Assembly: GCA_017499595.2 (NCBI GenBank)
Contig: CM039003.1
Coordinates: 1-64,000, forward strand
DNA: 64,000 nucleotides
Reading direction: 5' to 3'
Source of the DNA: Psilocybe cubensis
Lineage: Eukaryota
The notes under the pieces were generated by a model. It was not told the DNA's origin, did not search any database, and worked only from the letters and a program-made list of their open reading frames with translations. A program made the translations under genes and the position numbers. Each line of letters opens with the position of its first letter. The stretch's first letter is position 1. Below, one piece after another: positions 1,910 to 21,628 of the stretch.

Positions 1910-4900
1910 ATGTCATCCCAATACTCTGCTGCATTCTCTCGTGCCATGTCCCCTACCCTGGACGCACTCACCCAGGCCGTCGTCAACAACACTGTCTTCG
2001 GCGTCAACGATGAAGCAGGCCGCCATAACGCTCTTATCGACGAGCTGGCCACTGTGGTCATCAAAAAAATAGCTGAGTGCCGCTCCGTTGACCAAGTCAT
2101 AGACTGCGTCTTTTTTGACTATCGTGCTGCCCTCAGGGAGTTTCTCCTCAACCTCGCATCGTGGTGCGACAAGAGGGAAACAGTCAAGGCTAGCCTCGAG
2201 CGCCTTGAATCTGCCGTTAGCGCAGGCAACACGCCCAATCGCCTTAAGGTGAAGGCACCCGAGTTCCAACTTACGAAGGAATTCGCGGATGCCGGGTCAG
2301 CGGAGGCTCTTCGAGTCTCCACTACGTTCTCTTCCGCTCGTGATGCCTTCCAAAAGGCAATTAACGACGGCGCCGTTCAGGCGAAAAAGGACGAGCTGGC
2401 TTTTTGGGATGATAAATGCGCGCTCAACTCTTGCTACGAAGCTGCTGCCCTCATCGTTAAGGCAACTTACGATGATCGCAAATCCAGCTACAAGCTCCCT
2501 GTTTTCTCTACAGACAACAAGGGAGTTCGACGTATAGCAGAGTGGGTAGTGTCTCCGCAAAAGAAAGCCGAATGCAGTGCGCTGCAAACTATACTGCCGG
2601 CGATCTTTTCTCATATCAAACAGATTGTCAACATGCGCCACCGCGCCTTGGCAATTAAGATTGAGAAAAAGCGGACGACTGCGGCAACAGCCGATGTCGA
2701 GATGGCCGATGCGACCAAACCAGGTCCATCGATTCAATCCCTTATTGATAAGGGCTTGAATGCACGTCTCAAAAAGCTCAACCTTGGATCTGTGGGCAAG
2801 AAGGCAAGTTTTCGTAACCCTTCACCCATAATTCTGGACACTAATTATTACTCTAATTACCCAGACTTTGTCTGGCCAGAATTCGTCCAAGGCTCCTCAA
2901 CCTCAGGCCAGGAAAGCTGGCCCTTCGAAACCCAAGTCGTCGTCGACGCCTTCGCAGAGGAAGCCTCAAACCAAGGCTTCCAACAAGGTCGACAACAAGA
3001 AGAAAGGGAAGGGGAGAGCTCCCGTCAAGAACAACGATCCAAAGGGAAAGGGAAAGGCAAGAGCCTAGACGCGCGGTCTACTGTAGCATCATTTACGTCG
3101 GTGAGACCCGCCTTCCCCAACTCTATTCCTGACGATATACTCACCATGACTAAAACAGACGCAGTTTCTTTTGTACACCTCAATACCCCGATTTCATTCT
3201 TATTGGCTGGCCAGTATAGATCTAGTGTACACTGTAGTCCTGGTGTTTCGGTCCCTGTTGATGTAGCAAATGATTTATCTCTTGGACTCAATTATATGTT
3301 TTTTACACTGCCTTCTAAAAATCTGATCATGCAAGCATGGAATGATTTTCAACGAAGAATAAGATGGCGTATCTATTTTTTGTTTAAAGAAGGCATGAAT
3401 AAACCTTTCGATCCAGACTATGGAGTAAGCTCTAAAAAGAAAGAGAAACCTCCAATGTTACCCGCAATTTATGGAACTTGGCCTTTCAATGGGACGTCGG
3501 TACGTTATTAAAACGATCGCAAGTATCCCGGAAGAAGCCCTTAAAGAGATGCGAAAGCACGCGTTCTCTCCTAAAAGGGACAAGATCCAAAAGTTTCTTT
3601 TCGATAACAACTATGTTATTACGATGACAGATAAGAATCTTGGCCTCGCGGTGTCTGAACGCGACTGGATATTAAGGAATGAGCTCAATCTTCTTGAAGA
3701 TGAACGCAACTACGAAGAGTTAGAATTCGAAGTTGCGCAAGAAGTTATGAAGAGCAAAATGATTCAGATGCAAACTCTCGCACGTACCGTCGAAGATGAA
3801 CATCTGTTTCTATTTGAACTTGGGTTGTCTCGATTCTTTCTATCGAATGTACCGGAAGACGGATCATCGTTCAAGTATCCTCAATTTCATGGTATACCTA
3901 AAATCCACAAGAAACCTACTGGATTTAGGCCCATAATTCCGTGTCACTCTGTAGTATTTAATCCTGCAGCCAAGTTTGTATCAAAAGAGCTTAAGCCGAT
4001 TATTAAATCGACTCCTTCAATCATTCACGGAACGAAGGATCTCTTTACGAGATTAAGCCAATTGCGTATAGACCCCAAACGACAATGGTATTTTGTCACC
4101 GGGGATGTAGTTGCTTTCTATCCCAATATTCCGTTGGACTTGTGCATCGAAATCGTTTGTAATATGTACGAGGAATGGTTACTCAACGCTTCGGAAGAGA
4201 ACACTGCATTAGCCCATATTAATCCAAATTCGTTAGAGAATAACTTGGTTAAATTGGGCATCTTTAAACGTGCTATCGAGATTGGCAATACGCAATTGAT
4301 AACACAACATGGGTCTAGATATTTTAGACAAAAAAATGGCCTCGCAATGGGCGTCGCGGATTCTCCGGACCTTGCTAACCTCTTTGGAGCCCATTTTGAA
4401 ATAAAGTCAAAAATCTTAGACCACCCAAACGTGGCCTTCTATGGAAGGTACATCGACGATTGTTTCGCAATTGTTTACGCCGAGTCCGAAGCACTTGCAC
4501 TTAATCTTATTAAAGAAACAATAAAGTTCGATGGTTGTGTTATCGAATGGGCTGTCTCCTCGTCGGGATGTCAATTTCTCGATGCTTTCATATTCAAGGA
4601 GTCTGGAAAACTTCATTGGAAGCCATTTGTCAAGACAGGAAACAACCGAGAACGAGTTCCATGGGTATCACATCATCCTTTGGACGTCAAACGTGGCGTC
4701 TACATTGGAGAGTTATCCAGGTTAGCCGTGCTATGTAGTACCAAGGAAATCTACATCGGAGCAATTAGAGACCTTAACGCTCTCTATTTGATGCGCGGTT
4801 ATCCCGAAAACCTAGTCATGTCTTGGTGTAAGAAGAATATACAAGAACGTTGGGAAAAGCGATTCGCTTTACGAGTCGCAGAGCACGACGAATCCATTCT

Positions 4901-5444
4901 TGTACTTAAAACCAGATTTGATCAGGTATGGAATTGGTTTTCAGCTGCTGAACTTGGAAAGACTGTTACCGAGTACTGGTCGGCATGGTATGAACATGCC
5001 GAGAAAGGTTTGTATAGTGCAGACTCGTCCAGACCCCTTATCAAACCAGATCCAAATTACGTTCACGACCTCGATGATGTTCGCCCGGAGCTGTTCACAC
5101 AGATCCTCGTGGACGGAGAAACTGAGTTCGTACCGGATTTGAGGAAGATAGGACTACTCGGAAGTCGTTGGATAGTATCGCGAAAACGCAATACTAATCT
5201 TTTCGACCTTGCAAATGTGTGGAAGAAAACAGTCTTTCGTAAACTGGATGAAAACATCGCTGAAAAAGGTGGTGTTGTTCCCGAAACTCAAAACGTTAAT
5301 GAAACTTATCATTCTGCTTTAGTTGAAGCTGCTGAACAGATAAGTATCGAAAGTGATAACGAGATAATACTTCATAGACGTTCAATCTCACAAGAGAGGG
5401 AACATCCAGAATTCGGCAGAATATCCAAATCTTACAACCGATGA
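1910..5444 (+). pseudogene. ORF1-RT polyprotein of element A, split by a +1 frameshift near 3461-3463 (ORFs 1910-3511 and 3471-5444)
   Basis: TTACCCGCAA here versus TTACCGCAA in copies B and C; otherwise colinear with the 1176-aa ORF; could be a homopolymer assembly error. Confidence 0.8.
2804..2864 (+). other. Putative 61-nt GC-AG spliceosomal intron inside the element ORF (also 9928-9988 and 15057-15117)
   Basis: AAG|GCAAGT donor, CTAAT branch sites, CCCAG acceptor; removal joins ORF1 in frame to the Lys-rich ORF ending at 3068. Confidence 0.75.
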
Positions 5445-6160
5445 AAAGAATACTAGCGCGTAAGGCGTAAAGCATTAGAAAAAAACCCTAACCGTAAGTA
5501 TTCCTTGCTACAAAGTAACAAACATCTACTTACAAGCAACACATTGGATTAAATAGCTAAACCTAAACCTAAACCCTAAACCCTAAACCCTAAACCCTAA
5601 CCTAACCCCAACCCTAAGCTAACTAAGTCTAACCTTAGTAGGAAGTAAGGTAGGCGTGTGAACTTCCGAACGGCATGTGATTGTGAAGGGCCGGATCTAA
5701 TTTAGTACATGGGAAAAGTTACTTAGTACTTCGGGAAAAGTTCCTTAGTACCGTGGAAACATTTTTGATGGACCGGATCATGAACTGTCCAATTAAGATT
5801 CACAACAATCAATCATTCTATTGTTTGATTGTTAGGTAAGGACCCAGGTAAGCTATTTATACTCTAGACATGTGAATATTCCCATGTCGCGGTTACTCGG
5901 AGCCACGTAACCAGAGTAATCTATATCCATGTGATTCACATCACAGTCAATAACCCACGATGTCAAAGAACAAAAGTGTTGGATCCACTTTTGACAGGTT
6001 ACCATGTGCCACATCGACCCGTGACACTCTGTTCATCAGAGACCTGTCTAACTTGACAATAAACATTGACAGATTTGTGATAGTCGGTAAGATACATGAC
6101 AGCTGCGCAGCATCACTTCACGCGCTGTCATCGGATGTCTAGAACATTCCTTCTAAGAAT

Positions 6161-6224
6161 AGCCACTGAAGAGTCTATAAAGACGAAAGGGCTGGTTGTT
6201 GGGATCCCCCAACAGCCCTCTGGC
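6161..6224 (+). ncRNA. Type I hammerhead ribozyme (copy 3)
   Basis: Identical to copy 1. Confidence 0.93.
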
Positions 6225-6362
6225 CTTCTTTCTATTTCAAACTCACAGTTTAAACTAGTCGCTCGCACCTCGCTTCGCTCGGTGCTCGCTCCCCCCCTAA
6301 ACCCTAAACCCTAAACCCTAAAACCCTAAACCCTAACCCCTAAACCCTAAACCCTAAACCCT

Positions 6363-7401
6363 AACATCGCTGAAAAAGGTGGTGTTGTTCCCGAAACTCA
6401 AAACGTTAATGAAACTTATCATTCTGCTCTAGTTGAAGCTGCTGAACAGATAAGTATCGAAAGTGATAACGAGATAATACTTCATAGACGTTCAATCTCA
6501 CAAGAGAGGGAACATCCAGAATTCGGCAGAATATCCAAATCTTACAACCGATGAAAAGAATACTAGCGCGTAAGGCGTAAAGCATTAGAAAAAAACCCTA
6601 ACCGTAAGTATTCCTTGCTATAAAGTAACAAACATCTACTTACAAGCAACACTTTGGATTAAATAGCTAAACCTAAACCCTAAACCCTAAACCCTAAACC
6701 CTAACCTAACCCCAACCCTAAGCTAACTAAGTCTAACCTTAGTAGGAAGTAAGGTAGGCGTGTGAACTTCCGAACGGCATGTGATTGTGAAGGGCCGGAT
6801 CTAATTTAGTACATGGGAAAAGTTACTTAGTACTTCGGGAAAAGTTCCTTAGTACCGTGGAAACATTTTTGATGGACCGGATCATGAACTGTCCAATTAA
6901 GATTCACAACAATCAATCATTCTATTGTTTGATTGTTAGGTAAGGACCCAGGTAAGCTATTTATACTCTAGACATGTGAATATTCCCATGTCGCGGTTAC
7001 TCGGAGCCACGTAACCAGAGTAATCTATATCCATGTGATTCACATCACAGTCAATAACCCACGATGTCAAAGAACAAAAGTGTTGGATCCACTTTTGACA
7101 GGTTACCATGTGCCACATCGACCCGTGACACTCTGTTCATCAGAGACCTGTCTAACTTGACAATAAACATTGACAGATTTGTGATAGTCGGTAAGATACA
7201 TGACAGCTGCGCAGCATCACTTCACGCGCTGTCATCGGATGTCTAGAACATTCCTTCTAAGAATAGCCACTGAAGAGTCTATAAAGACGAAAGGGCTGGT
7301 TGTTGGGATCCCCCAACAGCCCTCTGGCCTTCTTTCTATTTCAAACTCACAGTTTAAACTAGTCGCTCGCACCTCGCTTCGCTCGGTGCTCGCTCCCCCC
7401 C
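6363..7401 (+). mobile_element. 5'-truncated Coprina-like copy (ORF 3' end plus terminal repeat)
   Basis: Begins mid-ORF (AACATCGCTGAAAAAGG) directly after telomeric tract 6298-6364. Confidence 0.92.
7265..7328 (+). ncRNA. Type I hammerhead ribozyme (copy 4)
   Basis: Identical to copy 1. Confidence 0.93.
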
Positions 7402-7521
7402 TAAACCCTAAACCCTAAACCCTAAACCCTAAACCCTAAACCCTAAACCCTAAACCCTAAACCCTAAACCCTAAACCCTAAACCCTAAACCCTAAACCCT
7501 AAACCCTAAACCCTAAACCCT
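7402..7521 (+). repeat. Internal telomeric tract; acts as the 5' exon of the group I intron
   Basis: About 17 TAAACCC units. Similar internal tracts at 1100-1176, 6298-6364, 18542-18626, 21393-21441 and 21629-21681. Confidence 0.95.
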
Positions 7522-8287
7522 AAAACCGTTACGGAGGTCATACAAACTCGTTTTAGTCTAGCTGCGGGGATATCCAGCTATGATGACTTTGTAATTCGAG
7601 GGCGCGCAGTTCTTCAATGGGTATGGACATCAGGTGAGAGTACACTGGGGGTTGTCAGGACCAGCTCTGCTGGATACGCTCCTGGCAAGTCGGTTGCAGC
7701 CGGCGACACTACCGAATTGCTGGGACGTCCTAAAGCTTGTGGGTACCGCCGACCGCTGGAAACAGCCTAGGCACCGGTGGCGACCGGGTATGGTAACAAT
7801 CCCCAAGATTCAGCGAAAGCTGGAATGGATAATCAGCAGCGAATCCGTAACGGTCACGCCGACGGAAGCGTTCAACGACTAGGTGGTAGTGGGGTCTTCG
7901 GATCTTAAGATATAGTCTTGGGAGTGGGGAAACCCACATCTGGTATCTAAACCGCGCCTCGCTGCTTACGAGGACGGCCCGAAGTCCAGAACCGCTTAAA
8001 ACGCGGGTGACCCGGCCTCCCCTTAGTAAAGGGAGTTAACACAAGGATGGACAAATAGTTCGTCGCCGGAAATGAACCTGTGGCTGTAATGGCTGATGTG
8101 GCGCCCCTTGGTAAAGGGCTTAAAGGGTATTAGCCTGCCATGTCCAATGGCATGAGAGTGTCCCTTGGTAAAGGACTTAATAGGCAATAGCCTGCTCTTT
8201 TGTCATGAGCGGTATGTAGTGATCGTTTGCCTGTACGGTAGCGCCCATTGCTTGCACTGGTCCACGCCCGTAAAAAATCACGAGCCG
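7522..8287 (+). ncRNA. Group I intron (subgroup IC1-like ribozyme), ORF-less, inserted in a telomeric repeat
   Basis: P3 CACTACCG 7707-14 / TGGTAGTG 7884-91; P4 TGCTGG 7718-23 / TCAGCA 7833-38; P5abc with A-rich bulge and GAAA tetraloop; R GTTCAACGACTA; S TAAGATATAGTC; P7 A(C)GACTA/TAGTCT; P8 UUCG hairpin; P9 GTGGG-GAAA-CCCAC; preceded by U7521 and ends in G8287. Confidence 0.93.
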
Positions 8288-8862
8288 AAACCCTAAACCC
8301 TAACCTAACCCCAACCCTAAGCTAACTAAGTCTAACCTTAGTAGGAAGTAAGGTAGGCGTGTGAACTTCCGAACGGCATGTGATTGTGAAGGGCCGGATC
8401 TAATTTAGTACATGGGAAAAGTTACTTAGTACTTCGGGAAAAGTTCCTTAGTACCGTGGAAACATTTTTGATGGACCGGATCATGAACTGTCCAATTAAG
8501 ATTCACAACAATCAATCATTCTATTGTTTGATTGTTAGGTAAGGACCCAGGTAAGTTATTTATACTCTAGACATGTGAATATTCCCATGTCGCGGTTACT
8601 CGGAGCCACGTAACCAGAGTAATCTATATCCATGTGATTCACATCACAGTCAATAACCCACGATGTCAAAGAACAAAAGTGTTGGATCCACTTTTGACAG
8701 GTTACCATGTGCCACATCGACCCGTGACACTCTGTTCATCAGAGACCTGTCTAACTTGACAATAAACATTGACAGATTTGTGATAGTCGGTAAGATACAT
8801 GACAGCTGCGCAGCATCACTTCACGCGCTGTCATCGGATGTCTAGAACATTCCTTCTAAGAA

Positions 8863-8929
8863 TAGCCACTGAAGAGTCTATAAAGACGAAAGGGCTGGTT
8901 GTTGGGATCCCCCAACAGCCCTCTGGCTA
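8863..8929 (+). ncRNA. Type I hammerhead ribozyme (copy 5), stem I extended to TAGCCA/TGGCTA
   Basis: Same core; variant lengthens stem I. Confidence 0.93.
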
Positions 8930-9033
8930 CTTTCCATTTAACTCCCAGTTTAAACTAGTCGCTCGCACCTCGCTTCGCTCGGTGCTCGCTCCCCCCCTAA
9001 ACCCAACGACTTTGCTATTATCCATCAGCCACT

Positions 9034-12000
9034 ATGTCATCTCAATACTCTGCTGCTTTCTCTCGTGCCATGTCCCCCACCCTGGACGCACTCACCCAGG
9101 CCGTCGTCAACAACACCGTTTTCGGCGTCAACGATGAAGCAGGCCGCCATAACGCTCTGATCGACGAGCTGGCCACTGTGGTCATCAAAAAAATAGCTGA
9201 GTGCCGCTCCGTTGACCAAGTCATAGACTGCGTCTTTTTTGACTATCGTGCTGCCCTTAGGGAGTTTCTCCTCAACCTCGCATCGTGGTGCGATAAGAGG
9301 GAAACAGTCAAGGCTAGCCTCGAGCGCCTTGAATCTGCCGTTAGCGCAGGCAACACGCCCAATCGCCTTAAGGTGAAGGCACCCGAGTTCCAACTTACGA
9401 AGGAATTCGCGAATGCCGGGTCAGCGGAGGCTCTTCGAGTCTCCACTACGTTCTCTACCGCTCGTGACGCCTTCCAAAAGGCAATTAACGACGGCGCCAT
9501 TCAGGCGAAAAAGGACGAGCTGACTTTTTGGGATGATAAATGCGCACTCAACTCTTGCTACGAAGCTGCTGCCCTCATCGTTAAGGCAACTTACGATGAT
9601 CGCAAATCCAGCTACAAGCTCCCTGTTTTCTCTACAGATAACAAGGGAGTTCGACGTATAGCAGAGTGGGTAGTGTCTCCGCAAAAGAAAGCCGAATGCA
9701 GTGCGCTGCAAACCATACTGCCGGCGATCTTTTCTCACATCAAACAAATTGTCAACATGCGCCACCGCGCTTTGGCAATTAAGATTGAGAAAAAGCGGAC
9801 GACTGCGGCAACAGCCGATGTCGAGATGGCCGACGCGACCAAACCAGGTCCGTCGATTCAATCCCTTATTGATAAGGGCTTGAATGCACGTCTCAAGAAG
9901 CTCAACCTTGGATCTGTGGGCAAGAAGGCAAGTTTTCGTAACCCTTCACCCATAATTCTGGATACTAATTACTACTCTAATTACCCAGACTTTGTCTGGC
10001 CAGAATTCATCCAAGGCTCCTCAACCTCAGGCCAAGAAAGCTGGCCCTTCGAAACCCAAGTCGTCGTCGACGCCTTCGCAACGCAAGCCTCAAACCAAGG
10101 CTTCCAACAAGGTCGACAACAAGAAGAAAGGGAAGGGGAGAGCTCCCGTCAAGAACGATCCAAAGGGAAAGGGAAAGGCAAGAGCCTAGATGCGCGGTCT
10201 AATGTAGTACCTTTTACGTCGGTGAGACCCGCCTTCCCCAACTCTATTCCTGACGATATACTCACCATGACTAAAACAGACGCAGTTTCTTTCGTACACT
10301 TACATACTCCAATATCATTCTTGTTGGCTGGCCAGTATCGTAGTAGTGTACATTGTAGTCCTGGTGTTTCTGTCCCTGTTGATGTAGCAAACGATCTCTC
10401 TCTCGGACTTAATTATATGTTTTTCACTCTGCCTTCTAAAAGTCTGATCATGCAAGCATGGAATGATTTCCAACGAAGAATAAGATGGCGTATCTATTTT
10501 TTGTTTAAGGAAGGCATGAATAAACCTTTTGATCCAGATTATGGAGTAAGCTCAAAAAAGAAAGAGAAACCTCCTGTATTACCGCAATATATGGAACTTG
10601 GCCTTTCGATGGGACGTCGGTACGTGCAACGCACGATCGCAAGTATCCCGGAAGAAGCCCTTACGGAGATGCGAAAGCACGCGTTCTCTCCTAAAAGGGA
10701 CAAGATCCGTAAGTTTCTTATCGATAACAACTATGTTATTACGATGACAGATAAGAATCTTGGCCTCGCGGTGTCTGAACGCGACTGGATATTAAGGAAT
10801 GAGCTCAATCTTCTTGAAGATGAACGTAATTACGAAGAGTTAGAATTCGAAGTTGCGCAAGAAGTTATGAAGAGCAAAATGATTCAGATGCAAACGCTCG
10901 CACGTACTGTCGAAGATGAACATCTGTTTCTATTTGAACTTGGGTTGTCTCGATTCTTTCTATCGAATGTACCGGAAGACGGATCATCGTTCAAGTATCC
11001 TCAATTTCATGGTATACCTAAAATCCACAAGAAACCTACTGGATTTAGGCCCATAATTCCGTGTCACTCTGTAGTATTTAATCCTGCAGCCAAGTTTGTA
11101 TCAAAAGAGCTTAAGCCGATTATTAAATCGACTCCTTCAATCATACACGGAACGAAGGATCTCTTTACGAGATTAAGCCAATTGCGTATAGACTCCAAAA
11201 GACAATGGTATTTTGTCACTGGAGATGTAGTTGCTTTCTATCCCAATATTCCGTTGGACTTGTGCATCGAAATCGTTTGTAGTATGTACGAGGAATGGTT
11301 ACTCAACGCTTCGGAAGAAAACACTGCATTAGCCCATATTAATCCAAATTCGTTAGAGAATAACTTGGTTAAATTGGGCATCTTTAAACGTGCTATCGAG
11401 ATTGGCAATACGCAATTGATAACACAACATGGGTCTAGATATTTTAGACAAAAAAATGGCCTCGCAATGGGCGTCGCGGATTCTCCGGACCTTGCTAACC
11501 TCTTTGGAGCCCATTTTGAAATAAAGTCAAAAATCTTAGACCACCCAAACGTGGCCTTCTATGGAAGGTACATCGACGATTGTTTCGCAATTGTTTACGC
11601 CGAGTCCGAAGCACTTGCACTTAATCTTATTAAAGAAACAATAAAGTTCGATGGTTGTGTTATCGAATGGGCTGTTTCCTCGTCGGGATGTCAATTTCTC
11701 GATGCTTTCATATTCAAGGAGTCTGGAAAACTTCATTGGAAGCCTTTTGTCAAGACAGGAAACAACCGAGAACGAGTTCCATGGGTATCACATCATCCTT
11801 TGGACGTCAAACGTGGCGTCTACATTGGAGAGTTATCCAGGTTAGCCGTGCTATGTAGTACCAAGGAAATCTACATCGGAGCAATTAGAGACCTTAACGC
11901 TCTCTATTTGATGCGCGGTTATCCCGAAAACCTAGTCATATCTTGGTGTAAGAAGAATATACAAGAACGTTGGGAAAAGCGATTCGCTTTACGAGTCGCA

Positions 12001-12564
12001 GAGCACGACGAATCCATTCTTGTACTTAAAACCAGATTTGATCAGGTATGGAATTGGTTTTCAGCTGCTGAACTTGGAAAAACTGTTACCGAGTACTGGT
12101 CGGCATGGTATGAACATGCCGAGAAAGGTTTGTATAGTGCAGACTCGTCCAGACCCCTTATCAAACCAGATCCAAATTACGTTCACGACCTCGATGATGT
12201 TCGCCCGGAGCTGTTCACACAGATCCTCGTGGACGGAGAAACTGAGTTCGTACCGGATTTGAGGAAGATAGGACTACTCGGAAGTCGTTGGATAGTATCG
12301 CGAAAACGCAATACTAATCTTTTCGACCTTGCAAATGTGTGGAAGAAAACAGTCTTTCGTAAACTGGATGAAGACATCGCTGAAAAAGGTGGTGTTGTTC
12401 CCGAAACTCAAAACGTTAATGAAACTTATCATTCTGCTTTAGTTGAAGCTGCTGAGCAGATAAGTATCGAAAGTGATAACGAGATAATACTTCATAGACG
12501 TTCAATCTCACAAGAGAGGGAACATCCAGAATTTGGCAGAATATCCAAATCTTACAACCGATGA
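9034..12564 (+). CDS. Penelope-like (Coprina) ORF1-reverse transcriptase polyprotein, 1176 aa, no endonuclease
   Basis: RT motifs PKIHK..FRPII, GDVVAFYPNIP, QKNGLAMG..SP.LANLF, YGRYIDD and FLD; helical, probably coiled-coil N-terminus; C-terminus lacks GIY-YIG. Confidence 0.95.
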   Translation: MSSQYSAAFSRAMSPTLDALTQAVVNNTVFGVNDEAGRHNALIDELATVVIKKIAECRSVDQVIDCVFFDYRAALREFLLNLASWCDKRETVKASLERLESAVSAGNTPNRLKVKAPEFQLTKEFANAGSAEALRVSTTFSTARDAFQKAINDGAIQAKKDELTFWDDKCALNSCYEAAALIVKATYDDRKSSYKLPVFSTDNKGVRRIAEWVVSPQKKAECSALQTILPAIFSHIKQIVNMRHRALAIKIEKKRTTAATADVEMADATKPGPSIQSLIDKGLNARLKKLNLGSVGKKASFRNPSPIILDTNYYSNYPDFVWPEFIQGSSTSGQESWPFETQVVVDAFATQASNQGFQQGRQQEEREGESSRQERSKGKGKGKSLDARSNVVPFTSVRPAFPNSIPDDILTMTKTDAVSFVHLHTPISFLLAGQYRSSVHCSPGVSVPVDVANDLSLGLNYMFFTLPSKSLIMQAWNDFQRRIRWRIYFLFKEGMNKPFDPDYGVSSKKKEKPPVLPQYMELGLSMGRRYVQRTIASIPEEALTEMRKHAFSPKRDKIRKFLIDNNYVITMTDKNLGLAVSERDWILRNELNLLEDERNYEELEFEVAQEVMKSKMIQMQTLARTVEDEHLFLFELGLSRFFLSNVPEDGSSFKYPQFHGIPKIHKKPTGFRPIIPCHSVVFNPAAKFVSKELKPIIKSTPSIIHGTKDLFTRLSQLRIDSKRQWYFVTGDVVAFYPNIPLDLCIEIVCSMYEEWLLNASEENTALAHINPNSLENNLVKLGIFKRAIEIGNTQLITQHGSRYFRQKNGLAMGVADSPDLANLFGAHFEIKSKILDHPNVAFYGRYIDDCFAIVYAESEALALNLIKETIKFDGCVIEWAVSSSGCQFLDAFIFKESGKLHWKPFVKTGNNRERVPWVSHHPLDVKRGVYIGELSRLAVLCSTKEIYIGAIRDLNALYLMRGYPENLVISWCKKNIQERWEKRFALRVAEHDESILVLKTRFDQVWNWFSAAELGKTVTEYWSAWYEHAEKGLYSADSSRPLIKPDPNYVHDLDDVRPELFTQILVDGETEFVPDLRKIGLLGSRWIVSRKRNTNLFDLANVWKKTVFRKLDEDIAEKGGVVPETQNVNETYHSALVEAAEQISIESDNEIILHRRSISQEREHPEFGRISKSYNR

Positions 12565-13279
12565 AAAGAATACTAGCGCTTAAGGCGTAAAGCATTAGAA
12601 AAAAACCCTAACCGTAAGTATTCCTTGCTATAAAGTAACAAACATCTACTTACAAGCAACACATTGGATTGAATAGCTAAACCTAAACCTAAACCCTAAA
12701 CCCTAAACCCTAAACCCTAACCTAACCCCAACCCTAAGCTAACTAAGTCTAACCTTAGTAGGAAGTAAGGTAGGCGTGTGAACTTCCGAACGGCATGTGA
12801 TTGTGAAGGGCCGGATCTAATTTAGTACATGGGAAAAGTTACTTAGTACTTCGGGAAAAGTTCCTTAGTACCGTGGAAACATTTTTGATGGACCGGATCA
12901 TGAACTGTCCAATTAAGATTCACAACAATCAATCATTCTATTGTTTGATTGTTAGGTAAGGACCCAGGTAAGTTATTTATACTCTAGACATGTGAATATT
13001 CCCATGTCGCGGTTACTCGGAGCCACGTAACCAGAGTAATCTATATCCATGTGATTCACATCACAGTCAATAACCCACGATGTCAAAGAACAAAAGTGTT
13101 GGATCCACTTTTGACAGGTTACCATGTGCCACATCGACCCGTGACACTCTGTTCATCAGAGACCTGTCTAACTTGACAATAAACATTGACAGATTTGTGA
13201 TAGTCGGTAAGATACATGACAGCTGCGCAGCATCACTTCACGCGCTGTCATCGGATGTCTAGAACATTCCTTCTAAGAA

Positions 13280-13346
13280 TAGCCACTGAAGAGTCTATAA
13301 AGACGAAAGGGCTGGTTGTTGGGATCCCCCAACAGCCCTCTGGCTA
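13280..13346 (+). ncRNA. Type I hammerhead ribozyme (copy 6)
   Basis: As copy 5. Confidence 0.93.
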
Positions 13347-13991
13347 CTTTCCATTTAACTCCCAGTTTAAACTAGTCGCTCGCACCTCGCTTCGCTCGGT
13401 GCTCGCTCCCCCCCTAAACCCTAAACCCTAACCTAACCCCAACCCTAAGCTAACTAAGTCTAACCTTAGTAGGAAGTAAGGTAGGCGTGTGAACTTCCGA
13501 ACGGCATGTGATTGTGAAGGGCCGGATCTAATTTAGTACATGGGAAAAGTTACTTAGTACTTCGGGAAAAGTTCCTTAGTACCGTGGAAACATTTTTGAT
13601 GGACCGGATCATGAACTGTCCAATTAAGATTCACAACAATCAATCATTCTATTGTTTGATTGTTAGGTAAGGACCCAGGTAAGCTATTTATACTCTAGAC
13701 ATGTGAATATTCCCATGTCGCGGTTACTCGGAGCCACGTAACCAGAGTAATCTATATCCATGTGATTCACATCACAGTCAATAACCCACGATGTCAAAGA
13801 ACAAAAGTGTTGGATCCACTTTTGACAGGTTACCATGTGCCACATCGACCCGTGGCACTCTGTTCATCAGAGACCTGTCTAACTTGACAATAAACATTGA
13901 CAGATTTGTGATAGTCGGTAAGATACATGACAGCTGCGCAGCATCACTTCACGCGCTGTCATCGGATGTCTAGAACATTCCTTCTACGAAT

Positions 13992-14056
13992 AGCCACTGA
14001 AGAGTCTATAAAGACGAAAGGGCTGGTTGTTGGGATCCCCCAACAGCCCTCTGGCT
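13992..14056 (+). ncRNA. Type I hammerhead ribozyme (copy 7)
   Basis: Same core; stem I AGCCA/TGGCT. Confidence 0.93.
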
Positions 14057-14162
14057 TCTTTCCATTTTAACTCCCAGTTTAAACTAGTCGCTCGCACCTC
14101 GCTTCGCTCGGTGCTCGCTCCCCCCCTAAACCCAACGACTTTGCTATCACCCATCAGCCACT

Positions 14163-17100
14163 ATGTCATCCCAATATTCTGCTGCTTTCTCTCGTGCCAT
14201 GTCCCCCTCCCTGGACGCACTCACCCAGGCCGTCGTCAACAACACCGTCTTCGGCGTCAACGATGAAGCAGGCCGCCAAAACGCTCTCATCGACGAGCTG
14301 GCCACTGTGGTCATCAAGAAAATAGCTGAGTGCCGCTCCGTTGATCAAATAATAGACTGCGTCTTTTTTGACTATCGCGCTGCCCTTAGGGAGTTTCTCC
14401 TCAACCTCGCATCGTGGTGCGACAAGAGGGAAACAGTCAGGGCTAGCCTTGAGCGCCTTGAACTTGCCGTTAGCGCAGGCAGCACCCCCAATCGCCTTAA
14501 GGTGAAGGCTCCCGAGTTCCAACTCACGAAGGAATTCGCGGATGCCGGGTCAGCGGAGGCTCTTCGAGTCTCTACTACGTTCTCCACCGCTCGTGACGTC
14601 TTCCAAAAGGCGATTAACGACGGCGCCATTCAGGCGAAAAAGGACGAACTGGCCTTTTGGGAGGATAAATGCGCACTCGCTTCTTGCTATGAAGCTGCTG
14701 CGGTCATCGTTAAGACAACTTACGAAGACCGCAAGTCCAGCTATAAGCTCCCCGTTTTCTCTACAGACAACAAGGGAGTTCGTCGCATAGCAGAGTGGGT
14801 AACGTCGCCGCAAAAGAAAGCCGAGTGCAGTGCGCTGCAAACTATACTGCCGGCTATCTTTTCTCATATCAAACAAATTGTCAAATTGCGCCACCGCGCT
14901 TTGGCAATTAAGATTGAGAAAAAGCGGTCGACCGCGGCTACAGCCGATGTCGAGATGGCCGACGCGACCAAACCAGGTCCGTCGATTCAATCCCTTATTG
15001 ATAAGGGCTTGAATGCACGTCTTAAGAAGCTCAACCTTGGATATGTGGGCAAGAAGGCAGGTTTTCGTAACCCTTCACCCATAACTTTGGATACTAATTA
15101 TTATTCTAATTACCCAGACTTCGTCTGGCCAGAGTTCGTCCAAGGCTCCTCAACCTCAGGCCAAGAAAACTGGCCCTTCGAAACCCAAGTCGTCGTCGAC
15201 GCCTTCGCAACGCAAGCCTCAAACCAAGGCTTCCAACAAGGTCGACAACAAGAAGAAAGGGAAGGGGAGAGCTCCCGTCAAGAACAACAATCCAAAGGGA
15301 AAGGGAAAGGCAAGAGCCTAAACGCGCGGTCTAATGTAGTACCTTTTACGTCGGTAAGACCCGCTTTCCCCAACTCTATTCCTGACGATATACTCACCAT
15401 GACTAAAACAGACGCAGTTTCATTTGTACACCTCAATACCCCAATTTCTTTCTTATTGGCTGGCCAGTATAGATCTAGTGTACATTGTAGTCCTGGTGTT
15501 GTAGTTCCGGTTGATGTAGCAAACGACTTATCTCTCGGTTTAAATTATATGTTTTTCACACTGCCTTCTCAAAGTCTGATCATGCAAGCATGGAATGATT
15601 TTCAACGAAGAATAAGATGGCGTATCTATTTTTTGTTTAAAGAAGGCATGAATAAACCTTTTGATCCAGATTATGGAGTAAGTTCTAAGAAAAAAGAAAA
15701 ACCTCCTGTATTACCGCAATATATGGAACTTGGCCTTTCGATGGGACGTCGGTACGTGCAACGCACGATCGCAAGTATCCCGGAAGAAGCCCTCACGGAG
15801 ATGCGAAAGCACGCGTTCTCTCCTAAAAGGGACAAGATCCGTAAGTTTCTTATCGATAACAACTATGTTATTACGATGACAGATAAGAATCTTGGCCTCG
15901 CGGTGTCTGAACGCGACTGGATAATAAGGAATGAGCTCAATCTTCTTGAAGATGAACGCAACTACGAAGAGTTAGAATTCGAAGTTGCTCAAGAAGTTAT
16001 GAAGAGCAAAATGATTCAGATGCAAACGCTCGCACGTACTGTCGAAGATGAACATCTGTTTCTATTTGAACTTGGGTTGTCTCGATTTTTTCTATCAAAT
16101 GTACCGGAAGACGGATCATCGTTCAAGTATCCTCAATTTCATGGTATACCTAAAATCCACAAAAAACCTACTGGATTTAGGCCCATAATTCCGTGTCACT
16201 CTGTAGTATTTAATCCTGCAGCCAAGTTTGTATCAAAAGAGCTTAAGCCGATTATTAAATCGACTCCTTCAATCATTCACGGAACGAAGGATCTCTTTAC
16301 GAGATTAAGCCAATTGCGTATAGACCCCAAACGACAATGGTATTTTGTCACCGGGGATGTAGTTGCTTTCTATCCCAATATTCCGTTGGACTTGTGCATC
16401 GAAATCGTTTGTAATATGTACGAGGAATGGTTACTCAACGCTTCGGAAGAAAACACTGCATTAGCCCATATTAATCCAAATTCGTTAGAGAATAACTTGG
16501 TTAAATTGGGCATCTTTAAACGTGCTATCGAGATTGGCAATACGCAATTGATAACACAACATGGGTCTAGATATTTTAGACAAAAAAATGGCCTCGCAAT
16601 GGGCGTCGCGGATTCTCCGGACCTTGCTAACCTCTTTGGAGCCCATTTTGAAATAAAGTCAAAAATCTTAGACCACCCAAACGTGGCCTTCTATGGAAGG
16701 TACATCGACGATTGTTTCGCAATTGTTTACGCCGAGTCCGAAGCACTTGCACTTAATCTTATTAAAGAAACAATAAAGTTCGATGGTTGTGTTATCGAAT
16801 GGGCTGTTTCCTCGTCGGGATGTCAATTTCTCGATGCTTTCATATTCAAGGAGTCTGGAAAACTTCATTGGAAGCCATTTGTCAAGACAGGAAACAACCG
16901 AGAACGAGTTCCATGGGTATCACATCATCCTTTGGACGTCAAACGTGGCGTCTACATTGGAGAGTTATCCAGGTTAGCCGTACTATGTAGTACCAAGGAA
17001 ATCTACATCGGAGCAATTAGAGACCTTAACGCTCTCTATTTGATGCGCGGTTATCCCGAAAACCTAGTCATGTCTTGGTGTAAGAAGAATATACAAGAAC

Positions 17101-17696
17101 GTTGGGAAAAGCGATTCGCTTTACGAGTCGCAGAGCACGACGAATCCATTCTTGTACTTAAAACCAGATTTGATCAGGTATGGAATTGGTTTTCAGCTGC
17201 TGAACTTGGAAAGACTGTTACCGAGTACTGGTCGGCATGGTATGAACATGCCGAGAAAGGTCTGTATAGTGCAGACTCGTCCAGACCCCTTATCAAACCA
17301 GATCCAAATTACGTTCACGACCTCGATGATGTTCGCCCGGAGCTGTTCACACAGATCCTCGTGGACGGAGAAACTGAGTTCGTACCGGATTTGAGGAAGA
17401 TAGGACTACTCGGAAGTCGTTGGATAGTATCGCGAAAGCGCAATACTAATCTTTTCGACCTTGCAAATGTGTGGAAGAAAACAGTCTTTCGTAAACTGGA
17501 TGAAAACATCGCTGAAAAAGGTGGTGTTGTTCCCGAAACTCAAAACGTTAATGAAACTTATCATTCTGCTCTAGTTGAAGCTGCTGAACAGATAAGTATC
17601 GAAAGTGATAACGAGATAATACTTCATAGACGTTCAACCTCACAAGAGAGGGAACATCCAGAATTCGGCAGAATATCCAAATCTTACAACCGATGA
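14163..17696 (+). CDS. Penelope-like (Coprina) ORF1-reverse transcriptase polyprotein, 1177 aa
   Basis: Same RT motifs (YIDD) as copy B; uninterrupted ORF. Confidence 0.95.
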   Translation: MSSQYSAAFSRAMSPSLDALTQAVVNNTVFGVNDEAGRQNALIDELATVVIKKIAECRSVDQIIDCVFFDYRAALREFLLNLASWCDKRETVRASLERLELAVSAGSTPNRLKVKAPEFQLTKEFADAGSAEALRVSTTFSTARDVFQKAINDGAIQAKKDELAFWEDKCALASCYEAAAVIVKTTYEDRKSSYKLPVFSTDNKGVRRIAEWVTSPQKKAECSALQTILPAIFSHIKQIVKLRHRALAIKIEKKRSTAATADVEMADATKPGPSIQSLIDKGLNARLKKLNLGYVGKKAGFRNPSPITLDTNYYSNYPDFVWPEFVQGSSTSGQENWPFETQVVVDAFATQASNQGFQQGRQQEEREGESSRQEQQSKGKGKGKSLNARSNVVPFTSVRPAFPNSIPDDILTMTKTDAVSFVHLNTPISFLLAGQYRSSVHCSPGVVVPVDVANDLSLGLNYMFFTLPSQSLIMQAWNDFQRRIRWRIYFLFKEGMNKPFDPDYGVSSKKKEKPPVLPQYMELGLSMGRRYVQRTIASIPEEALTEMRKHAFSPKRDKIRKFLIDNNYVITMTDKNLGLAVSERDWIIRNELNLLEDERNYEELEFEVAQEVMKSKMIQMQTLARTVEDEHLFLFELGLSRFFLSNVPEDGSSFKYPQFHGIPKIHKKPTGFRPIIPCHSVVFNPAAKFVSKELKPIIKSTPSIIHGTKDLFTRLSQLRIDPKRQWYFVTGDVVAFYPNIPLDLCIEIVCNMYEEWLLNASEENTALAHINPNSLENNLVKLGIFKRAIEIGNTQLITQHGSRYFRQKNGLAMGVADSPDLANLFGAHFEIKSKILDHPNVAFYGRYIDDCFAIVYAESEALALNLIKETIKFDGCVIEWAVSSSGCQFLDAFIFKESGKLHWKPFVKTGNNRERVPWVSHHPLDVKRGVYIGELSRLAVLCSTKEIYIGAIRDLNALYLMRGYPENLVMSWCKKNIQERWEKRFALRVAEHDESILVLKTRFDQVWNWFSAAELGKTVTEYWSAWYEHAEKGLYSADSSRPLIKPDPNYVHDLDDVRPELFTQILVDGETEFVPDLRKIGLLGSRWIVSRKRNTNLFDLANVWKKTVFRKLDENIAEKGGVVPETQNVNETYHSALVEAAEQISIESDNEIILHRRSTSQEREHPEFGRISKSYNR

Positions 17697-18406
17697 AAAG
17701 AATACTAGCGCGTAAGGCGTAAAGCATTAGAAAAAAACCCTAACCGTAAGTATTCCTTGCTATAAAGTAACAAACATCTACTTACAAGCAACACTTTGGA
17801 TTAAATAGCTAAACCTAAACCCTAAACCCTAAACCCTAAACCCTAACCTAACCCCAACCCTAAGCTAACTAAGTCTAACCTTAGTAGGAAGTAAGGTAGG
17901 CGTGTGAACTTCCGAACGGCATGTGATTGTGAAGGGCCGGATCTAATTTAGTACATGGGAAAAGTTACTTAGTACTTCGGGAAAAGTTCCTTAGTACCGT
18001 GGAAACATTTTTGATGGACCGGATCATGAACTGTCCAATTAAGATTCACAACAATCAATCATTCTATTGTTTGATTGTTAGGTAAGGACCCAGGTAAGCT
18101 ATTTATACTCTAGACATGTGAATATTCCCATGTCGCGGTTACTCGGAGCCACGTAACCAGAGTAATCTATATCCATGTGATTCACATCACAGTCAATAAC
18201 CCACGATGTCAAAGAACAAAAGTGTTGGATCCACTTTTGACAGGTTACCATGTGCCACATCGACCCGTGGCACTCTGTTCATCAGAGACCTGTCTAACTT
18301 GACAATAAACATTGACAGATTTGTGATAGTCGGTAAGATACATGACAGCTGCGCAGCATCACTTCACGCGCTGTCATCGGATGTCTAGAACATTCCTTCT
18401 ACGAAT

Positions 18407-18471
18407 AGCCACTGAAGAGTCTATAAAGACGAAAGGGCTGGTTGTTGGGATCCCCCAACAGCCCTCTGGCT
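18407..18471 (+). ncRNA. Type I hammerhead ribozyme (copy 8)
   Basis: As copy 7. Confidence 0.93.
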
Positions 18472-18626
18472 TCTTTCCATTTTAACTCCCAGTTTAAACT
18501 AGTCGCTCGCACCTCGCTTCGCTCGGTGCTCGCTCCCCCCCTAAACCCTAAACCCTAAACCCTAAACCCTAAACCCTAAACCCTAAACCCTAAACCCTAA
18601 ACCCTAAACCCTAAACCCTAAACCCT

Positions 18627-21392
18627 AGAAGCCCTCAAGGAGATGCGAAAGCACGCGTTCTCTCCTAAAAGGGACAAGATCCAAAAGTTTCTTATCGATA
18701 ACAACTATGTTATTACGATGACAGATAAGAATCTTGGCCTCGCGGTGTCTGAACGCGACTGGATATTAAGGAACGAGCTCAATCTTCTTGAAGATGAACG
18801 CAACTACGAAGAGTTAGAATTCGAAGTTGCTCAAGAAGTTATGAAGAGCAAAATGATTCAGATGCAAACTCTTGCACGTACCGTCGAAGATGAACATCTG
18901 TTTCTATTTGAACTTGGGTTGTCTCGATTTTTTCTATCGAATGTACCGGAAGATGGATCATCGTTCAAGTATCCTCAATTTCATGGTATACCTAAAATCC
19001 ACAAGAAACCTACTGGATTTAGGCCCATAATTCCGTGTCACTCTGTAGTATTTAATCCTGCAGCCAAGTTTGTATCAAAAGAGCTTAAGCCGATTATTAA
19101 ATCGACTCCTTCAATCATTCACGGAACGAAGGATCTCTTTACGAGATTAAGCCAATTGCGTATAGACTCCAAAAGACAATGGTATTTTGTCACTGGAGAT
19201 GTAGTTGCTTTCTATCCCAATATTCCGTTGGACTTGTGCATCGAAATCGTTTGTAGTATGTACGAGGAATGGTTACTCAACACTTCGGAAGAAAACACTA
19301 CATTAGCCCACATTAAGCCAAATTCGTTAGAGAATAACTTGGTTAAATTGGGCATCTTTAAACGTGCTATCGAGATTGGCAATACGCAATTGATAACACA
19401 ACATGGGTCTAGATATTTTAGACAAAAAAATGGCCTCGCAATGGGCGTCGCGGATTCTCCGGACCTTGCTAACCTCTTTGGAGCCCATTTTGAAATAAAG
19501 TCAAAAATCTTAGACCACCCAAACGTGGCCTTCTATGGAAGGTACATCGACGATTGTTTCGCAATTGTTTACGCCGAGTCCAAAGCACTTGCACTTAATC
19601 TTATTAAAGAAACAATAAAGTTCGATGGTTGTGTTATCGAATGGGCTGTTTCCTCGTCGGGATGTCAATTTCTCGATGCTTTCATATTCAAGGAGTCTGG
19701 AAAACTTCATTGGAAGCCATTTGTCAAGACAGGAAACAACCGAGAACGAGTTCCATGGGTATCACATCATCCTTTGGACGTCAAACGTGGCGTCTACATT
19801 GGAGAGTTATCCAGGCTAGCCGTGCTATGTAGTACCAAGGAAATCTACATCGGAGCAATTAGAGACCTTAACGCTCTCTATTTGATGCGCGGTTATCCCG
19901 AAAACCTAGTCATGTCTTGGTGTAAGAAGAATATACAAGAACGTTGGGAAAAGCGATTTGCTTTACGAGTCGCAGAGCACGACGAATCCATTCTTGTACT
20001 TAAAACCAGGTTTGATCAGGTATGGAATTGGTTTTCAGCTGCTGAACTTGGAAAAACTGTTACCGAGTACTGGTCGGCATGGTATGAACATGCCGAGAAA
20101 GGTCTGTATAGTGCAGACTCGTCCAGACCCCTTATCAAACCAGATCCAAATTACGTTCACGACCTCGATGATGTTCGCCCGGAGCTGTTCACACAGATCC
20201 TCGTGGACGGAGAAACTGAGTTCGTACCGGATTTGAGGAAGATAGGACTACTCGGAAGTCGTTGGATAGTATCGCGAAAGCGCAATACTAATCTTTTCGA
20301 CCTTGCAAATGTGTGGAAGAAAACAGTTTTTCGTAAACTGGATGAAGACATTGCCGAAAAAGGTGGTGTTGTTCCCGAAACTCAAAACGTTAATGAAACT
20401 TATCATTCTGCTCTAGTTGAAGCTGCTGAACAGATAAGTATCGAAAGCGATAACGAGATAATACTTCATAGACGTTCAATCTCACAAGAGAGGGAACATC
20501 CAGAATTCGGCAGAATATCCAAATCTTACAACCGATGAAAAGAATACTAGCGCTTAAGGCGTAAAGCATTAGAAAAAAACCCTAACCGTAAGTATTCATT
20601 GCTATAAAGTAACAAACATCTACTTACAAGCAACACATTGGATTGAATAGCTAAACCTAAACCTAAACCCTAAACCCTAAACCCTAAGCCCTAACCTAAC
20701 CCCAACCCTAAGCTAACTAAGTCTAACCTTAGTAGGAAATAAGGTAGGCGTGTGAACTTCCGAACGGCATGTGATTGTGAAGGGCCGGATCTAATTTAGT
20801 ACATGGGAAAAGTTACTTAGTACTTCGGGAAAAGTTCCTTAGTACCGTGGAAACATTTTTGATGGACCGGATCATGAATTGTCCAATTAAGATTCACAAC
20901 AATCAATCATTCTATTTTTTGATTGTTAGGTAAGGACCCAGGTAAGCTATTTATACTCTAGACATGTGAATATTCCCATGTCGCGGTTACTCGGAGCCAC
21001 GTAACCAGAGTAATCTATATCCATGTGATTCACATCACAGTCAATAACCCACGATGTCAAAGAACAAAAGTGTTGGATCCACTTTTGACAGGTTACCATG
21101 TGCCACATTGACCCGTGACACTCTGTTCATCAGAGACCTGTCTAACTTGACAATAAACATTGACAGATTTGTGATAGTCGGTAAGATACATGACAGCTGC
21201 GCAGCATCACTTCACGCGCTGTCATCGGATGTTCCAGAACATTCCTTCTAAGAATAGCCACTGAAGAGTCTATAAAGACGAAAGGGCTGGCCGTTTGTAC
21301 CCCCAAACAGCCCTCTGGCCTTCTTTCTATTTCAAACTCACAGTTTAAACTAGTCGCTCGCACCTCGCTTCGCTCGGTGCTCGCTCCCCCCC
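18627..21392 (+). mobile_element. 5'-truncated Coprina-like element D (retains the RT domain, ORF 18643-20538)
   Basis: Starts mid-ORF directly after telomeric tract 18542-18626. Confidence 0.92.
21256..21319 (+). ncRNA. Type I hammerhead ribozyme (copy 9), variant stem III loop
   Basis: Core and stems unchanged; only the distal part of stem III differs (GCCGTTTGTACCCCCAAA). Confidence 0.92.
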
Positions 21393-21440
21393 TAAACCCT
21401 AAACCCTAAACCCTAAACCCTAAACCCTAAACCCTAAACC

Positions 21441-21628
21441 CAGCATCACTTCACGCGCTGTCATCGGATGTCTAGAACATTCCTTCTAAGAATAGCCACT
21501 GAAGAGTCTATAAAGACGAAAGGGCTGGTTGTTGGGATCCCCCAACAGCCCTCTGGCCTTCTTTCCATTTAACTCACAGTTTAAACAAGTCGCTCGCACC
21601 TCGCTTCGCTTGGTGCTCGCTCCCCCCC
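21441..21628 (+). mobile_element. Innermost short 3' fragment of the terminal repeat (hammerhead plus terminal hairpin only)
   Basis: Last ~190 nt of the repeat, lying between two telomeric tracts. Confidence 0.9.
21494..21557 (+). ncRNA. Type I hammerhead ribozyme (copy 10)
   Basis: Same as copy 1. Confidence 0.92.

Follow-up and report, generated by a model that had tools for sequence, protein, structure and literature searches.

The first 64,000 nucleotides (nt) of contig CM039003.1 of Psilocybe cubensis (assembly GCA_017499595.2, forward strand), hereafter the window, start at a chromosome end and carry a head-to-tail array of one retroelement family, which lies on the plus strand and reaches approximately 21.7 kb. 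The elements of this array encode an open reading frame 1 (ORF1) domain followed by a reverse transcriptase (RT), and are assigned below to the Penelope-like elements (PLEs) of Coprina type. The full coding region is present in three copies, A (1910–5444), B (9034–12564) and C (14163–17696), which are 96–97% identical to one another, and a fourth copy, beginning at 18627, is truncated at its 5′ end. The subject of this study is a short candidate intron situated between the two coding parts. Judging from the sequence, we consider it probable that this is a single-frame element, in which retention of the intron leads to an ORF1-RT fusion, while its splicing leads to an ORF1 with a basic tail.

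Such an arrangement had been proposed in a preceding reading of the DNA letters alone (the sequence-only reading), and its anatomy was confirmed, with some corrections. The ORF1 core occupies positions 1910–2803 in copy A, where it comprises 298 amino acids (aa) and has homologues, 9034–9927 in copy B and 14163–15056 in copy C. In all three copies it is followed by the putative 61-nt phase-0 intron that had been predicted (2804–2864, 9928–9988 and 15057–15117, respectively), which is free of stops in the frame of ORF1 (frame 0) and, as represented by copy A (AAG/GCAAGT...CTAAT...CCCAG/AC), has positional homologues in relatives. Its acceptor reads TTACCCAG/AC, with CTAAT branch-like motifs upstream. 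The predicted donor AAG/GCAAGT was found in copies A and B, but not in copy C, where it is AAG/GCAGGT. All sites taken together, the window intron fits the U2-type GC-AG class: the donor follows the consensus except at position +2, the CTAAT motif and CCCAG acceptor are in place, and the whole is the positional homologue of GT-AG introns in the 30 other clusters of relatives described below.

Since the intron is 3n+1 nt long, its removal would shift the frame by one. The exon downstream of it can then be read in two ways. In the +1 frame it specifies a basic tail of 67 aa in copy A (exon 2865–3068, stop TAG at 3066), 66 aa in copy B (9989–10189, stop TAG at 10187) and 67 aa in copy C (15118–15321, stop TAA at 15319), so that the spliced ORF1 would contain 365, 364 and 365 aa, respectively. 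Both the openness of this frame in all three copies and the positions of its stops had been noted in the sequence-only reading, as well as the sole indel of the segment, which is indeed 3 nt long (AAC, missing from copy B); the product of about 365 aa expected there also follows from the letters, with a tail one residue shorter than the announced 67 aa in copy B. In frame 0 the same exon forms a part of the disordered linker between ORF1 and RT. Retention of the intron gives an uninterrupted fusion ORF of 1176 aa in copy B (9034–12564, protein P0001) and of 1177 aa in copy C (14163–17696). Thus, the fusion of 1176 aa foreseen earlier is present in B and, with one more residue, in C, but not in A, where a 1-nt insertion near 3461 breaks the frame into two ORFs (1910–3511 and 3471–5444). 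In the fusion the intron is read as the peptides ASFRNPSPIILDTNYYSNYPDFVWPEF, while the +1 frame carries stops inside the intron. The top protein matches of the element come from Psilocybe cubensis, and a 1176-aa UniRef entry named “reverse transcriptase domain-containing protein” is 100% identical over the queried region.

A peculiarity of the overlap is that the run AAAGGGAAAGGGAAAGG at 3040–3062, with equivalents in copies B and C, reads K-G-K-G-K both in frame 0 and in the tail frame, and that both frames give KGKG for AAAGGGAAAGGG, with which the overlap closes. The spliced and unspliced products would therefore both carry the KGKGK motif.

Another possible donor, of the GT type, lies 12 nt upstream of the GC donor: TCT/GTGGGC at 2792 (2792–2797 in copy A) and 9916, and TAT/GTGGGC at 15045. 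It would define a 73-nt intron leading to the same frame, so that products of the two donors would differ by four residues. NCBI models P0002, P0004, P0005 and P0006 of Psilocybe cubensis use this upstream site (...NLGY/TSSGQ...).

Within the window all three forward frames are open across 2865–3065, and openness of the tail frame is therefore weak evidence by itself. When the tail codons of copy B were shuffled, frame 0 stayed open in 0.2% of 2000 trials; shuffling of the intron left it stop-free in 48%. The window-only case for something more than chance is modest, and decisive support comes from relatives.

Intron and reading frames in relatives

Related stretches are widespread, 207 of them having been confirmed in metagenome contigs; TDKNLG was one of two patterns used to scan for them. 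The best 80 by tblastn score were taken for analysis. A match to both the C-terminal part of ORF1 and the N-terminal part of RT was present in 47 of these loci, which were processed by an automated pipeline, and 10 more were judged by relaxed inspection. The 33 loci left out of the counts are mostly those where the contig begins within RT or where ORF1 is too divergent; in one (L064) the contig begins too near the site for judgement. Clustering at 80% nucleotide identity gave 30 clusters for the 47 loci, or 31 with the window. Some intron boundaries were set by eye.

In all 47 loci, and also in the window copies, ORF1 and RT share one frame with no stops between them. A candidate intron was found at the same position in all 31 clusters, and its removal would always yield a basic tail. 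Its length over the clusters is 46, 49, 52, 55, 58 or 61 nt, that is always 3n+1, and varies only by multiples of three, within clusters too; net length changes within pairs behave likewise. The same regularity was seen with intron picking that was blind to the frame. If the best-scoring pair of donor and acceptor was taken, the length was 1 mod 3 in 44 of 47 loci, and if the first good donor was taken, in 47 of 49, the window copies being counted. The loci picked wrongly by the best-score rule (L056, L057, L066) or by the first-donor rule (L003, L033 and L074, the last with no pick) have 1 mod 3 introns by eye or by the other rule. As a control, the picker was applied to 915 random windows within the same ORFs, where it returned a candidate in 110 cases, distributed among the three length classes as 55, 27 and 28; none of these 110 candidates led to a basic tail of at least 40 aa.

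The donor consensus is AAG/GTAAGT, acceptors are of the YAG type and branch-like motifs are present in all 31 representatives. Among these representatives G was found at position +1 in 31, T at +2 in 30, G at +5 in 28 and G at −1 in 21, with a pyrimidine at acceptor position −3 in 31; GT, AG and a score threshold are partly built into the picker, which affects this logo. The sequence-only reading had suggested conservation in relatives as a check, and both the splice signals at one position and the second frame proved to be present in all 31 clusters. Its idea that the switch is based on a weak GC donor did not hold: donors are GT in 30 of 31 clusters, many of them with the consensus sequence, and GC is a variant of the Psilocybe lineage. 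No intronless copy was found among the 47 loci and the three window copies.

Both readings have counterparts among annotated proteins. Annotated proteins of 335–400 aa that match the ORF1 core come from Psilocybe cyanescens, Hypholoma, Trametes, Plicaturopsis, Mycena, Mucidula and Lenzites, and intron-aware gene models of at least 10 Agaricomycete species end in a tail of the same type, ...KGKGKA(K/R)A. A search spanning the junction returned 89 proteins of 655–1251 aa, with identities to that of the window ranging over 28–100%. For 51 of the 89 it was possible to place the conserved ORF1 end, and most of these run through the intron position into RT; read-through proteins often have K-V-S at the donor, which corresponds to AAG/GTAAGT, where the window has K-A-S from AAG/GCAAGT. 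A model of Psilocybe cyanescens (P0036) reads ...GKKAS... through the donor site, which suggests that the GC donor persisted across families with 60%-identical ORF1 and may be compatible with activity.

The same arrangement was seen in a more distant clade, with putative introns of 49–79 nt, again all 3n+1, and with RGG-rich tails. Four of its loci (L027, L034, L041, L079) were picked automatically. In five others (L025, L029, L030, L032, L075) the picker gave 59 nt, which is 2 mod 3; the first AG there stands 2 nt past the branch motif, and moving the acceptor by eye to the next AG resulted in introns of 76–79 nt and in a tail homologous to that of L027 and L034.

Two local features of the tail deserve mention. 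The sequence TCTGGC just past the acceptor (window 2871–2880; L001–L009, L018, L020) is conserved across distant clusters even at the wobble sites of the tail frame. It is translated as S-G in the tail reading and as x-W when frame 0 is used, and its conservation may reflect either constraint on both frames or a signal for splicing within the exon. Furthermore, the peptide (K/R)Y..(I/L)AK(L/I)R...YVPPP(Y/F) opens the +1-frame tail ahead of its RGG- or KG-rich end in L025, L027, L029, L030, L032, L034 and L075, as well as in L017, L033, L065–L067 and L078. Since this opening is conserved, the tail is more than a low-complexity stretch.

The relatives made it possible to estimate selection in each frame separately. 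Substitutions were collected between nearest neighbours within clusters, in pairs that are not fully independent. Each was judged for synonymy in frame 0 and, separately, in the +1 frame, and the expectation was computed over every single change that is possible. When only those changes were counted that are synonymous in just one of the two frames, the ratio of observed to expected in the C-terminal part of ORF1 was 2.43 for frame 0 and 0.44 for the +1 frame (p = 2e-48), and the interior of the intron showed the same preference (1.68 and 0.81, p = 0.001). Past the acceptor it was reversed: 0.72 and 1.77 in the first half of the overlap (p = 4e-9), 0.69 and 1.78 in the second half (p = 1.6e-7). 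The linker after the tail stop gave 1.07 and 0.89 (p = 0.44), and in the N-terminal part of RT the preference for frame 0 was back (2.54 and 0.54, p = 1e-61). Selection at the amino-acid level thus acts in frame 0 up to the acceptor, in the tail frame until the tail stop, and in frame 0 again in RT. A change of the selected frame at the acceptor and a return in RT is what splicing predicts.

Frame 0 across the tail bears a signature of another kind. A stop appears in it wherever T is the last letter of a tail codon and the next codon begins with AA, AG or GA, as is common in a lysine-rich tail. T-ending codons were found before codons that begin in this way in 0 of 694 cases, as compared to 287 of 1362 before other codons. 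Shuffling of the tail codons gave a median probability of 0.013 per representative that frame 0 stays open, while the third frame has stops across the tail in 12 of 31 representatives. Frame 0 is consequently kept open actively, but without amino-acid selection. The intron is stop-free in 31 of 31 representatives, the probability for shuffled introns being approximately 0.6 each. Taken together with the constant 3n+1 length and the excess of frame-0-synonymous changes in the intron, this indicates that translation of unspliced RNA proceeds through the intron into RT. No start codon of RT is conserved: past the tail stop, 24 of 31 representatives have their first frame-0 ATG within the conserved N-terminal region of RT. 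It is therefore likely that RT is made by way of the fusion.

An antisense ORF was considered as a source of the signal in the tail frame and was rejected, since the antisense frame that shares its wobble sites has stops in 22 of 31 representatives. A ribosomal frameshift between ORF1 and RT was rejected as well: the two share a frame in all 47 loci and in the window copies, and within the intron the +1 frame is interrupted by stops.

Proposed splicing switch and alternative explanations

One transcript of these elements is readable in two ways, and traces of selection on each of the two readings are seen in at least 31 diverged lineages. The mechanism we propose for it assumes that a spliceosomal intron of very small size lies within the long reading frame, after the helical ORF1 domain and before RT, and would be spliced from a part of the transcripts. 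On RNA that kept the intron, the ribosome would pass through it and through a disordered linker of about 100 aa into RT, producing the fusion of 1176 aa. On RNA that lost it, the downstream nucleotides would be read as a disordered tail rich in K, G, P and S and ending in ...KGKGKARA; this reading would stop approximately 40 nt before the conserved RT region and supply an ORF1 of 364–365 aa without RT. One transcript would then provide both a structural protein of the nucleic-acid-binding type and a catalytic fusion, in a ratio presumably set by the efficiency of splicing. The basic tail may bind nucleic acid or direct nuclear import. Only unspliced RNA would be able to make RT, and if RT acts on the very RNA that encoded it, this would be the reason why every copy keeps the intron. 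The sequence-only reading had also assumed that only unspliced RNA makes RT and is copied, which fits the absence of intronless copies; its comparison with gag and gag-pol gains support at the family level from the conserved intron position and from selection on both readings. For the Psilocybe family an ancestral AAG/GTAAGT would have become AAG/GCAAGT, which should change the splicing efficiency but not the logic.

Several observations weigh against this scheme, and some of them would favour other explanations. The choice of the best 80 stretches among 207 by tblastn score favours intact copies. The three window copies show no clear frame preference (about 4 tail-synonymous versus 3 frame-0-synonymous changes, counted by eye), and they cannot tell which frame is selected because they are too similar. 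In protein calls for which no intron models were used (ENA, JGI, Logan), the ORF1 core was never seen contiguous with the tail, and all informative ones read through the intron; this absence weighs little, as the underlying data are probably DNA for the most part. Once the frame-0 codons are given, openness of the tail frame comes almost for nothing (it was open in every shuffle for 19 of 31 representatives), and Coprina elements are said, in the available part of one source, to have typically one ORF (PMC13159263). The last two points, together with the openness of all three frames in the window segment, would suit an element that is not spliced at all and has a single ORF, its basic +1 frame being a by-product of the T-poor and purine-rich composition of the linker. 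Composition, however, would hardly transfer amino-acid selection to the +1 frame right at the acceptor and return it to frame 0 in RT, keep splice signals at one position or conserve in the +1 frame the KGKGK... end of the tail and motifs such as AKxR...YVPPPY, and the stop-ridden antisense frame offers no explanation for them; we regard this possibility as extremely improbable. The opposite extreme, in which the intron is always removed, the tailed ORF1 is the sole product of the first cistron, RT is made apart by reinitiation or internal entry and the open frame of the intron is incidental, could appeal to Coprina elements with two ORFs, reported for Ascochyta lentis in the available text of the same paper (PMC13159263), and to the frame-0 ATG found in the window 12 codons into the N-terminal region of RT. 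It leaves unexplained why the intron follows the 3n+1 rule in every one of the 31 clusters and lacks stops in every representative, why frame-0-synonymous changes are enriched inside it, why T-ending codons avoid stop-prone neighbours across the tail without exception and why the start codon of RT is not conserved. Always-complete splicing therefore seems to us very improbable.

An explanation that accepts the switch for the family but questions it for Psilocybe deserves more attention, although we still think it unlikely. The GC donor of the window (GCAGGT in copy C, which is weaker) is the only non-GT donor among 31 clusters; splicing in the Psilocybe family could therefore be weak or use the upstream GT. 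The GC donor would then be idle, and either the 73-nt intron would be removed, as it is in the four NCBI models, or splicing would be largely lost with the fusion as the only product. Against this, AAG/GCAAGT fits the donor consensus everywhere except +2, while the upstream GTGGGC is a poor fit, and nothing corresponds to it in relatives. All three copies, at 96–97% identity, preserve the tail frame together with its stop, and P0036 of Psilocybe cyanescens suggests that the GC donor has lasted. Partial splicing of one frame remains the explanation that we prefer, and in the Psilocybe family either of the two donors may be the one in use.

Element class, predicted structures and telomeric setting

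The element is an endonuclease-less, telomere-attached PLE of Coprina type, a label derived from its features and its basidiomycete host rather than from an RT tree. The DKN motif upstream of the RT core, which is typical of PLEs according to the available part of one description (PMC13159263), is represented by TDKNLG at residues 572–577 of P0001 and is invariant in 43 sequences. In the AlphaFold model of the copy B fusion, the helical domain of ORF1 takes up approximately residues 35–260, residues 290–394, which correspond to the intron, the overlap and the linker sequence beyond it, form a disordered linker, and an RT resembling that of telomerase spans approximately 400–1118. Foldseek placed telomerase RTs at ranks 1–8 (E from 1.5e-7 to 3.5e-6), followed by RTs of group II introns and LINE-1 ORF2p. 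A Pfam search of the fusion returned no family, and the best hit of a sequence profile search against PDB had an E value of only 0.43. There is no room for a GIY-YIG endonuclease, as the ORF ends 58 residues past the last structured element and residues 1119–1176 are disordered; no endonuclease was found in the Pfam search of the fusion, which is a weak negative because the search missed RT too. The model of ORF1 has a helical domain at about 35–266, predicted with high confidence and containing a β-hairpin, a conserved short helix at 275–289 and a disordered tail at 291–361. Foldseek found nothing for it below E 0.2, and the predicted fold is that of a generic helical bundle.

The orientation of the elements is in line with this assignment. 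The ORFs point away from the chromosome end, and C-strand telomeric repeats stand between the plus-strand units; among the 80 relatives, C-strand repeats were found on the plus strand in 23 loci as a 6-mer and in 18 loci as a 7-mer, and G-strand repeats in 0. The usual telomeric repeat of basidiomycetes is the 6-mer TTAGGG. In the window the repeat is the 7-mer CCCTAAA (TTTAGGG type), which forms the terminal (CCCTAAA)n tract at 1–180, is seen again at 7405–7525 and 12677–12737 and marks junctions between units as short runs.

A terminal repeat of about 720 nt, similar to a pseudo-long terminal repeat (pLTR), lies upstream of ORF1 in copy B (8285–9004, plus strand), and recurs at 384–1106, 1158–1880, 5582–6304, 6686–7408, 12702–13421, 13413–14133, 17828–18548 and 20676–21399. 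The repeat of copy B includes a motif at 8844–8928 (plus strand) resembling a hammerhead ribozyme, with the cores CUGAAGAG and GACGAAA (RF03152, 29.1 bits, E 0.089, below the gathering score of 56.3). A second motif with the same cores, CUGAAGAG and GACGAAA, at 13261–13345 also scores below the gathering score for RF03152, and none of the 80 metagenome loci has a hammerhead at the gathering score. The array contains in addition severely 5′-truncated units consisting of a 3′ end and a terminal repeat, within the ranges 181–1136, 6364–7439, 18627–21430 and 21441–21666, one copy being truncated at the position equivalent to 10653 of copy B. They resemble the 5′ truncation seen with target-primed reverse transcription.

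Inside the array there is also a 759-nt unit unrelated to Coprina (7526–8284), flanked by telomeric repeats. It contains a full-length ribozyme similar to group I introns, with the core at 7643–7939 on the plus strand (RF00028, 70.9 bits). One metagenome locus (L080), the RT of which is only 31% identical to that of the window, has two such ribozymes upstream of its element (643–961 and 1518–1831); no group I-like ribozyme was found in the remaining 79 of the 80 loci. Window positions 7870–8083 and L080 positions 889–1108 are 74% identical over 230 nt, and the match runs 3′ beyond the ribozyme core. The unit has the appearance of a distinct RNA that was copied onto the end of the chromosome, and may be a non-autonomous passenger of these elements. 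Beyond the array, at 21700–64000, there are only three ORFs of at least 180 aa in the standard code: 41767–42696 and 42465–43130 on the minus strand and 45942–46673 on the plus strand.

Relation to known expression strategies

Synthesis of a structural protein and of its catalytic fusion from one RNA is familiar from retroviruses, where gag-pol is a minority product of frameshift or readthrough. The scheme proposed here shares with them a minority fusion made from one RNA; control in retroviruses is translational, whereas here it would be exerted through RNA processing. A closer parallel is Drosophila copia, which has a 2-kb spliced GAG RNA. In the elements studied here, as in the Ty1/copia group, there is a single ORF of the gag-pol type, the unspliced form of which would specify the polyprotein and the alternatively spliced form only the structural protein, allowing structural excess. 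The corresponding case in Arabidopsis is the Ty1/copia element EVD, for which a spliced subgenomic shGAG RNA is described in the available part of the report by Oberlin et al. 2017 (PMC5580714). At the sequence level, in reading frames and selection, the relatives analysed here follow this copia/EVD-like logic, by which unspliced RNA would give the fusion and spliced RNA the structural protein only. The devices differ. Splicing in copia and EVD is linked with premature termination and takes out the coding sequence around the protease, while here an intron of 46–79 nt would shift the frame, the same exon would be read in two frames as tail or linker, and the element is a PLE rather than a long terminal repeat element.

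Among PLEs, the endonuclease-deficient Athena of rotifers has a frameshift, accompanied by a pseudoknot, between ORF1 and RT, as represented in Fig. 1 of a survey consulted in part (PMC8557442). Like the window element, it is telomeric, lacks the endonuclease and has a coiled-coil-type ORF1 upstream of RT with a recoding device between them; unlike in Athena, ORF1 and RT stand here in one frame, and the device would be an intron instead of ribosomal frameshifting. Coprina-1_Alen of Ascochyta lentis, located at telomere ends, is described in the accessible text as carrying DKN, RT and thumb downstream of an ORF1 that includes a coil and disordered stretches (PMC13159263). Domain order and orientation relative to the telomere are the same as in the window, but that element is reported to have two separate ORFs, and the accessible text mentions no intron (PMC13159263). 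A literature search found no description of a splice switch in Coprina, although primary descriptions of Coprina may mention the intron. The switch is supported as a probable variant of the known splice-controlled choice between gag and gag-pol, which appears to be new for this class of elements.

PLE copies are known to keep a spliceosomal intron after retrotransposition, the cases listed in the available parts of the sources being located in the 5′ untranslated region or within the ORF (Arkhipova et al. 2003, 2013; PMC3846280, PMC8557442), and the significance of this retention was stated as unknown in the 2021 survey of PLEs, as far as its available part goes (PMC8557442). The intron described here is likewise kept in copies, but unlike the known ones it would have a coding role in both states. 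Whether retention is functionally caused in the Coprina lineage, the intron being a coding switch, RT preferring its own RNA and the dual-coding exon having been maintained across Agaricomycete families in which the N-terminal part of RT shares only about 45% identity with that of the window, is a question on which we are evenly divided.

The interest of these elements is defined by several circumstances. Of all retroelements, PLEs stand nearest to telomerase, and little is understood of the way in which they are expressed. Fungal annotations divide them inconsistently, presenting either a “hypothetical protein” of about 360 aa or an RT protein of about 1100 aa. The exon past the intron would be a clean natural case in which alternative splicing creates dual coding, and its signatures can be told apart: one frame is selected for its amino acids, and the other avoids stops. 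If the proposed switch is real, intron retention in PLEs would gain a testable rationale, the proportion of structural and catalytic products would be set as it is in Ty1/copia, and the synthesis of RT would be tied to the intron-bearing template.

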